Positions 58,705 through 59,280 of a stretch of 64,000 bases of DNA are shown one piece after another. The translations under genes and the position numbers were made by a program. Under the pieces are notes generated by a model. The model worked only from the letters and a program-made list of their open reading frames with translations, ran no database searches and was not told the DNA's origin. The DNA comes from Escherichia coli. Its GTDB lineage: Bacteria > Pseudomonadota > Gammaproteobacteria > Enterobacterales > Enterobacteriaceae. Each line of letters starts with the position of its first letter. Within the stretch, counting starts at the first letter, position 1. The stretch lies in assembly GCF_965641715.1 (NCBI RefSeq), contig NZ_OZ282453.1; one strand, written 5' to 3'.

Positions 58705-59280
58705 ATGGAATACTTTGATATGCGTAAAATGTCGGTAAATCTGTGGCGAAACGCTGCCGGTGAAACGCGAGAAATTTGCACTTTCCCACCGGCAAAACGT
58801 GATTTTTACTGGCGTGCCAGCATTGCATCCATCGCGGCGAATGGGGAGTTTTCTTTGTTTCCCGGTATGGAAAGGATAGTGACGTTGCTGGAAGGCGGCG
58901 AGATGTTCCTTGAAAGCGCAGACCACTTTAACCATACCTTAAAACCGTTACAGCCTTTTGCCTTTGCGGCGGACCAGGTGGTAAAAGCGAAACTGACGGC
59001 AGGGCAGATGTCGATGGATTTCAATATTATGACGCGCCTGGATGTCTGTAAGGCGAAAGTCAGAATTGCCGAACGTACGTTTACTACCTTTGGCTCACGC
59101 GGCGGGGTGGTGTTTGTGATTAACGGGGCGTGGCAACTGGGCGACAAACTGCTCACTACCGACCAGGGCGCGTGCTGGTTCGATGGCAGGCACACCCTGC
59201 GGCTTTTACAACCGCAAGGTAAACTGTTGTTCAGTGAAATCAACTGGCTCGCTGGTCATTCGCCGGATCAAGTTCAGTAA
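58705..59280 (+). CDS. ves: HutD-family protein Ves
   Basis: ORF 58642-59280 trimmed to the Met at 58705 (191 aa, MEYFDMRKM...). Confidence 0.85.

Follow-up and report, generated by a model that had tools for sequence, protein, structure and literature searches.

In the Escherichia coli DNA analyzed here (64,000 nucleotides, hereafter the window), the convergent genes ves and cho run into each other at their 3' ends. This raises the question of whether the shared segment couples the expression of a stress-induced protein to that of an SOS nuclease or is simply the place where two closely packed genes meet. The first-pass annotation gave an overlap of about 41 bp with transcription of each gene into the coding region of the other, and saw in it an opportunity for mutual antisense or interference regulation. 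When comparison across enterobacteria is combined with published transcriptome data, the reading that we favor, at a probability of roughly 0.75, is that two genuine convergent genes overlap as an ordinary result of compaction, with transcripts that overlap unavoidably and asymmetrically and with a regulatory effect that, if any, is probably small.

The geometry of the junction is exact. In the ORF listing the two 3' ends have precisely 41 bp in common (Table 1), with the ves stop being TAA at 59278-59280 and the cho stop TGA at 59242-59240 on the minus strand. Codons are in phase 123:132, such that position 1 of ves faces position 1 of cho and position 2 faces position 3. The genes are ordered astE-spy-ves on the plus strand and cho-nadE on the minus strand, in a window sharing about 99% identity with complete E. 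coli genomes, and the ves-cho locus was found in 5,423 of 5,426 of such genomes. It could be argued that one of the two frames ends elsewhere and that the overlap is an artefact of annotation, but we found no support for this, and it can be regarded as effectively refuted: the stops are unambiguous and in frame in two conserved genes with thousands of homologues, and RefSeq/PGAP annotation of two E. coli genomes (one of them 99.7% identical) assigns identical ends, with a ves of 191 amino acids, a cho of 295 amino acids, and the same 41-bp overlap. The longest ves ORF begins at 58642, upstream of the annotated start, and the choice of start leaves the 3' end unaffected. For cho, 4,417 homologues were retrieved, called excinuclease Cho wherever the source supplies a name. 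In one complete E. coli genome (NZ_CM149872.1) the query is split over two places, with a best coverage of 58% and cho labeled only as "endonuclease," which suggests that cho may be interrupted in that genome. A full-text literature search on ydjQ/ydjR returned nothing concerning the overlap.

Table 1. Features of the ves-cho junction and its surroundings, in window coordinates
Feature	Position	Strand	Description and source
ves CDS	58705..59280	+	191 aa, HutD family, environmental stress-induced protein Ves; ORF list, RefSeq, Pfam
cho CDS	59240..60127	-	295 aa, excinuclease Cho, GTG start; ORF list, RefSeq, homologues
Shared 3' segment of ves and cho CDS	59240..59280		41 bp, phase 123:132
Ves C-terminal extension S186-Q191 and stop	59260..59280	+	Tail comparison, junction alignment
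Cho C-terminal tail D287-S295 and stop	59240..59269	-	Antisense of Ves codons N180-Q189; Cho alignment
p19 RNase III duplex in cho	59447..59469		167-189 nt past ves stop; PMC7373196, exact match to window
p19 RNase III duplex in ves	59118..59140		100-122 nt past cho stop; PMC7373196
p19 RNase III duplex in ves	58830..58853		387-410 nt past cho stop; PMC7373196
12-bp hairpin on cho-sense RNA	59193..59221	-	19 nt past cho stop; z = -3.1, about -20 kcal/mol
C-rich, G-poor stretch in ves read-through RNA	59420..59560	+	C 0.38-0.41, G 0.20-0.24; composition profile
LexA-box-like palindrome CTGGATAGATAACCAG	60143..60158	-	16 nt upstream of cho GTG; pattern search
61-nt stretch at Rho-dependent 3' end	60093..60153	-	3' end about 24 nt into cho ORF, window ~60104; PMC7815308
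spy terminator hairpin	58522..58580		Folds on both strands; UUUUUU after it on minus strand
Tight convergent junctions besides ves/cho	8856-8899, 9576/9577, 41746-41780, 42861-42868		Also yoaF/yeaO, at 6519-6539 in the coordinates of L082

Tight convergent junctions are not confined to ves and cho. The ten convergent junctions in the window have spacers of 58, 21, -44, 0, 50, 92, 116, -35, 8, and -41 bp; three overlap (ves/cho included), one abuts, two more are spaced by 21 bp or less, and room for a terminator is absent at half of the ten. The further cases named in the first-pass annotation were all recovered at the positions given there, namely, a 44-bp overlap of nimR (there yeaM) with yeaL, a 35-bp overlap of ynjH with nudG, and the abutment of yoaI and yeaK without a spacer. 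In 49 neighboring genes, the antisense frame of phase 123:132 contains 0.050 stops per codon, and the probability of a tail is therefore 0.74 for at least 6 codons, as in Ves, and 0.63 for at least 9 codons, as in Cho. Given two abutting genes, the length and the phase of the overlap are those expected by chance. Convergent overlaps of coding sequences produced by mutation of stop codons were reportedly described by Rogozin et al. in 2002. In E. coli, convergent overlaps agree with a model of stop-codon mutation (Lillo and Krakauer 2007, PMC2174442), and phase 123:132 occurs among them most often, at 46% observed compared to 39% expected (PMC2174442).

How the ves/cho overlap came about can be followed in 80 orthologous cho loci, one genome per species, in each of which both genes were located. 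The tail-to-tail arrangement occurs in Escherichia, Citrobacter, Enterobacter, Leclercia, Lelliottia, Silvania, Kosakonia, Phytobacter, Franconibacter, and others, and the extent of overlap varies between them. It is 41 bp, with both stops fixed, in 17 of the 17 Escherichia and Citrobacter loci; 32 or 23 bp in the group of Enterobacter, Leclercia, Lelliottia, and Silvania; 15, 7, or 4 bp in Kosakonia, Phytobacter, and relatives (4 bp being a stop-on-stop TTAA); 10 or -3 bp in Franconibacter; and 45 or 73 bp in three odd loci. In some genera there are gaps of 3 and 28-48 bp instead. Ves ends with ...WLPGH* (185 amino acids) in most genera, and six added residues (SPDxVQ) are present in Escherichia and Citrobacter only, where a Ser codon (TCN) replaces the stop that follows H185 in other genera (TGA or TAA). 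As the ancestral stop was lost to this Ser codon, Ves reads six more codons to a TAA that is made of the invariant Ile283 codon of Cho and the first base of its codon 284 (T/I284). The conserved core of Cho, in turn, closes with ...EI(I/T)EL at residue 286, after which come 0-9 variable and unrelated residues across genera; here, Cho reads nine codons beyond the core, antisense to conserved Ves codons, until a stop first appears in frame. What overlaps is thus C-terminal extension that is variable or absent in orthologues and traceable to a lost stop. Measured in the junction alignment from the end of the Ves core (H185) to that of the Cho core (L286), the two cores are 10 nt apart in E. coli, compared with 1, -2, -5, 0, 5, 6, or 8 nt in the majority of the other genera with an overlap and 14-18 nt in the three odd loci; each core stops ahead of the 41 bp or only a little way into them. 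The replacement of the ves stop by the Ser codon came with a 9-nt gain, and several frame-shifting indels are seen at the junction among the orthologous loci. Overlaps attributed to stop-codon mutation (PMC2174442) are likewise tail to tail, tens of base pairs long, and in phase 123:132, with a non-conserved read-on after a lost or shifted stop and lengths within the geometric expectation. Each of these properties is found at ves/cho and nothing essential differs, with the addition that the history of this pair is readable in the 80 loci. Two records in this set look mislabeled or contaminated: a "Citrobacter sp." MAG contig with 98% identity to E. coli cho, and a contig labeled "Chryseobacterium sp. 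18061" that carries an enterobacterial cho-ves pair with tails almost identical to those of "Citrobacter sp. 18056."

If the tails themselves had a function, the overlap could be kept by selection on both proteins, and the two stops fixed in all 17 Escherichia and Citrobacter loci would be in line with this. To weigh constraint, 16 Escherichia and Citrobacter sequences were compared within and outside the overlap. Third positions of cho are variable at 5 of 14 sites in the overlap but at 45 of 50 outside (p = 9e-5), and second positions at 9 of 14 compared to 14 of 50 (p = 0.025). It is therefore the Ves codons that the Cho tail follows, with relaxed constraint on the tail itself, which is shown to evolve as a passenger of Ves. 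In favor of a function, Ves S186-P187-D188 and V190-Q191 are nearly invariant in the two genera, and all changes in the S186 codon are synonymous even where they alter Cho residue 289. However, V190, Q191, and the stop coincide with codons 283-285 of the conserved Cho core, and because the same bases encode both, their conservation may be a passive shadow; the short Ves extension would then be a passenger of the Cho core. Moreover, most genera do without the Ves extension, many have no Cho tail or an unrelated one, and the Pfam HutD match covers Ves residues 8-175 and ends ahead of the overlap. (Cho had no matching model in the Pfam copy used, and the boundary of its core was set by orthologue alignment.) Functional tails are, on this balance, highly improbable.

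At the level of RNA, the overlap has direct consequences. Each mRNA must hold its own stop codon and therefore reaches at least 38-41 nt into the coding sequence of its partner. That the ves and cho transcripts enter each other's coding region, as first proposed, is thus dictated by the placement of the stops, and it agrees with a published list of excludons (see below), with captured duplexes, and with antisense reads. Huang et al. (PMC7373196, Table S3) found p19-captured RNase III duplexes inside both cho and ves, which are 21/22 nt long and perfectly paired, with 2-nt overhangs. The duplex in cho places plus-strand RNA, i.e., RNA in the direction of ves, at that position, and since the more distant of the two duplexes in ves reaches 410 nt beyond the cho stop, antisense RNA covers most of ves. 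In the same study, sense/antisense RPM values for cho are 7.9/19.2 in the wild type, 6.4/22.0 in rnc-14, and 5.7/34.6 in rnc-38; those for ves are 156.7/4.7, 173.0/1.8, and 244.7/8.6, respectively; and antisense RNA on neighboring genes is about 2 RPM (PMC7373196). On these values, antisense RNA exceeds sense RNA in cho by 2.4- to 6-fold, and ves is about 20-fold above cho in LB-grown cells. Transcript 3' ends situated before the overlap on both strands would speak against mutual entry, and published Term-seq data contain none there: Adams et al. (PMC7815308) list no 3' end within MG1655 1,824,000-1,824,999, an interval that comprises ves, the overlap, and the 3' half of cho. No antisense Rho region is called in cho in the bicyclomycin data of that study (PMC7815308). 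It is possible that an internal antisense promoter in cho, instead of read-through from ves, makes the cho antisense RNA; a simple promoter scan detected no antisense promoter inside cho. The ves unit is missing from a SMRT-Cappable-seq list in which cho and nadE-cho units are present (PMC6131387), and we would guess that the size selection of that method drops short transcripts.

Transcript overlap of this kind is also a descriptive feature of a convergent excludon, for which inverse expression caused in cis would be the defining functional property. In the ExcludonFinder report (Sanmartin et al. 2025, NAR, PMC12288877), cho-ves is one of 165 convergent excludons of MG1655, which also include nudG-ynjH, yeaK-yoaI, and yeaL-nimR, and which are defined there by overlap of RNA-seq coverage in at least 50% of 58 transcriptomes. 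It could accordingly be proposed that ves and cho form a selected convergent excludon, in which cho is held down by transcription of ves outside SOS and ves by transcription of SOS-induced cho, as polymerases collide and RNase III cleaves the duplex RNA. Membership of the published excludome is in favor of this, although overlapping coding sequences display such coverage almost by definition. The RNase III duplexes in both genes and the excess of antisense over sense RNA in cho are what repression by antisense transcription would produce, but cho sense RNA shows no rise when RNase III is mutated (RPM from 7.9 to 6.4 in rnc-14 and 5.7 in rnc-38; PMC7373196). The high ves and low cho levels in LB would also be obtained from LexA repression alone. 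No report of inverse expression or of a phenotype for cho-ves was found in the literature searched. Of the mutual antisense or interference regulation first suggested, the transcript overlap is supported by published data and the regulation itself is putative; invasion looks to be mainly one way, from ves into cho, under the LB conditions of these data, and an effect specific to SOS induction or cold shock is conceivable.

The distribution of the arrangement among enterobacteria bears on the same proposal from another side. [quoted passage not shown] Pseudescherichia vulneris, Escherichia sp. ESNIH1, Enterobacter sp. ENT03, and UBA7338 are four lineages in which 49-69 nt separate the cores and the spacer contains a GC-rich hairpin formed by an inverted repeat, for example, CCCCTGAACCGGCAGGCGATTGCCGGTTCAGGGG in one of these loci. 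In the 80-locus set, no ves was located up to 2.5 kb from cho in Salmonella arizonae and S. diarizonae, C. sedlakii, Klebsiella, Raoultella, Intestinirhabdus, and others. Eight of the latter loci (S. arizonae, S. diarizonae, C. sedlakii, Intestinirhabdus, K. pneumoniae, two Raoultella, and Enterobacter sp. 10-1) have cho directly convergent with spy, with its stop 0-20 nt from the spy hairpin. These arrangements would be accounted for if ves was either inserted between cho and the spy hairpin or else cleanly lost several times. Taken together, the spacer-bearing lineages and those without ves near cho mean that the spacer-free ves-cho junction is common but dispensable. As no functional link between Ves and Cho is known and cho is already under the control of LexA and Rho, a selected mutual switch appears unlikely to us.

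The published cho transcription start at MG1655 1823491 corresponds to window position 60152, inside the LexA box (SMRT-Cappable-seq, PMC6131387), and the same data contain full-length cho transcripts as well as a nadE-cho co-transcript. In addition to the Rho-dependent 3' end listed in Table 1, a second Rho termination region has been reported about 270 nt into cho, at window position ~59859 on the minus strand (Term-seq and bicyclomycin, PMC7815308). The published 61-mers for the cho Rho 3' end and for the spy terminator both match the window exactly. When SOS is not induced, much of the transcription of cho thus seems to end prematurely. Through the nadE-cho co-transcript, polymerases would reach cho, and beyond it the antisense strand of ves, independently of LexA. 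A REP-like palindromic element is located in the nadE-cho spacer at 60278-60317; the co-transcript exists all the same.

Against this background, it is also conceivable that the coupling acts in one direction only, as an antisense brake. The spacer-free arrangement would then have been selected such that read-through from ves, acting in addition to LexA and Rho, prevents basal Cho nuclease from reaching harmful levels, while strong SOS induction overrides the brake and transiently silences ves. Two observations sit less comfortably with compaction and better with such a brake: the spacer-free tail-to-tail arrangement is found in at least nine genera, and in its 41-bp form throughout Escherichia and Citrobacter, which selection for coupling would fit as well, and a cho with more antisense than sense RNA has the appearance expected of a gene under an antisense brake. 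We nevertheless consider a selected brake of this type rather improbable.

The likely ends of the two transcripts complete the picture. No terminator-like site was detected by a terminator scan in or beside the overlap (59100-59400), and the fold of 59230-59330 on the plus strand is no better than that of shuffled sequence (z = -0.33). A shared bidirectional terminator within the overlap was considered and rejected on these two grounds. The first site past cho that resembles an intrinsic terminator on its strand is the spy hairpin, some 660 nt from the cho stop; its folding z scores are -6.6 (plus) and -4.2 (minus), with a terminator scan match on the minus strand at 58536..58522, and the spy 3' end itself has been mapped by Term-seq to window position ~58582-58583 on the plus strand, as a strong terminator (PMC7815308). 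The 12-bp hairpin much closer to the cho stop is situated inside the ves codons for LRLLQPQG and is without a U tract. According to per-species folds, it is present in E. coli and other Escherichia-group loci but missing from Citrobacter, which has different residues at this place. As a full cho terminator it was rejected, because antisense duplexes map past it and also for the missing U tract and its absence from Citrobacter; a role as a structure protecting the 3' end is speculative. On the other strand, the C-rich and G-poor stretch of the ves read-through RNA is, from its composition, a candidate Rho-loading region.

These elements can be joined into a course of events under the compaction reading. 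Tight packing with the cores 10 nt apart, the lost ves stop, a Cho tail that follows Ves passively, the lack of a terminator between the genes, RNA on both strands past the overlap, and RNase III cleavage are all shown by the sequences or by published data. From there on, the ves transcripts would pass their own stop into cho and end diffusely, most likely through Rho acting on untranslated C-rich RNA, whereas cho transcripts, initiated at the LexA-controlled promoter or arriving by read-through from nadE, would run antisense over ves up to the bidirectional spy hairpin. Some collision and some decay of duplex RNA would have to occur along the way, presumably as a by-product of packing and not as a selected switch.

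The comparison with known systems places ves/cho among familiar cases. Bidirectional intrinsic terminators are another means to end two converging units in a short space, but E. coli ves/cho is without such a hairpin, whereas a GC-rich hairpin does separate the two genes in Pseudescherichia, Enterobacter sp. ENT03, and relatives. With the convergent excludons of MG1655, such as ydfV-relBE, the pair has in common that neighbors on opposite strands have transcripts overlapping at their 3' ends, and published data provide both of the descriptive hallmarks, namely, transcripts that overlap and products of RNase III. Antibiotics were reported to bring about inverse expression of ydfV-relBE (PMC12288877). 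The ves/cho overlap differs from that case in taking in coding sequence and not 3' UTRs alone. The pair is already annotated and cataloged as a convergent excludon. The overlap does carry practical weight, as changing the 3' end of ves or cho alters the partner, and a clean knockout must spare 59240..59280; expression data for cho that lack strand specificity are contaminated by ves read-through. Should an effect in cis on Cho prove true, it would add a third layer of control on an SOS nuclease, besides LexA and Rho. The nearby pairs nimR/yeaL, ynjH/nudG, and yoaI/yeaK resemble ves/cho in being tight (44, 35, and 0 bp) and in all being listed as convergent excludons. As in cho, antisense exceeds sense RNA in two of the weaker partners, nudG (sense/antisense RPM of 9.0/45.4) and yoaI (2.4/13.4) (PMC7373196), and in this yeaL is unlike cho, with its antisense below its sense RNA (4.5/2.9).
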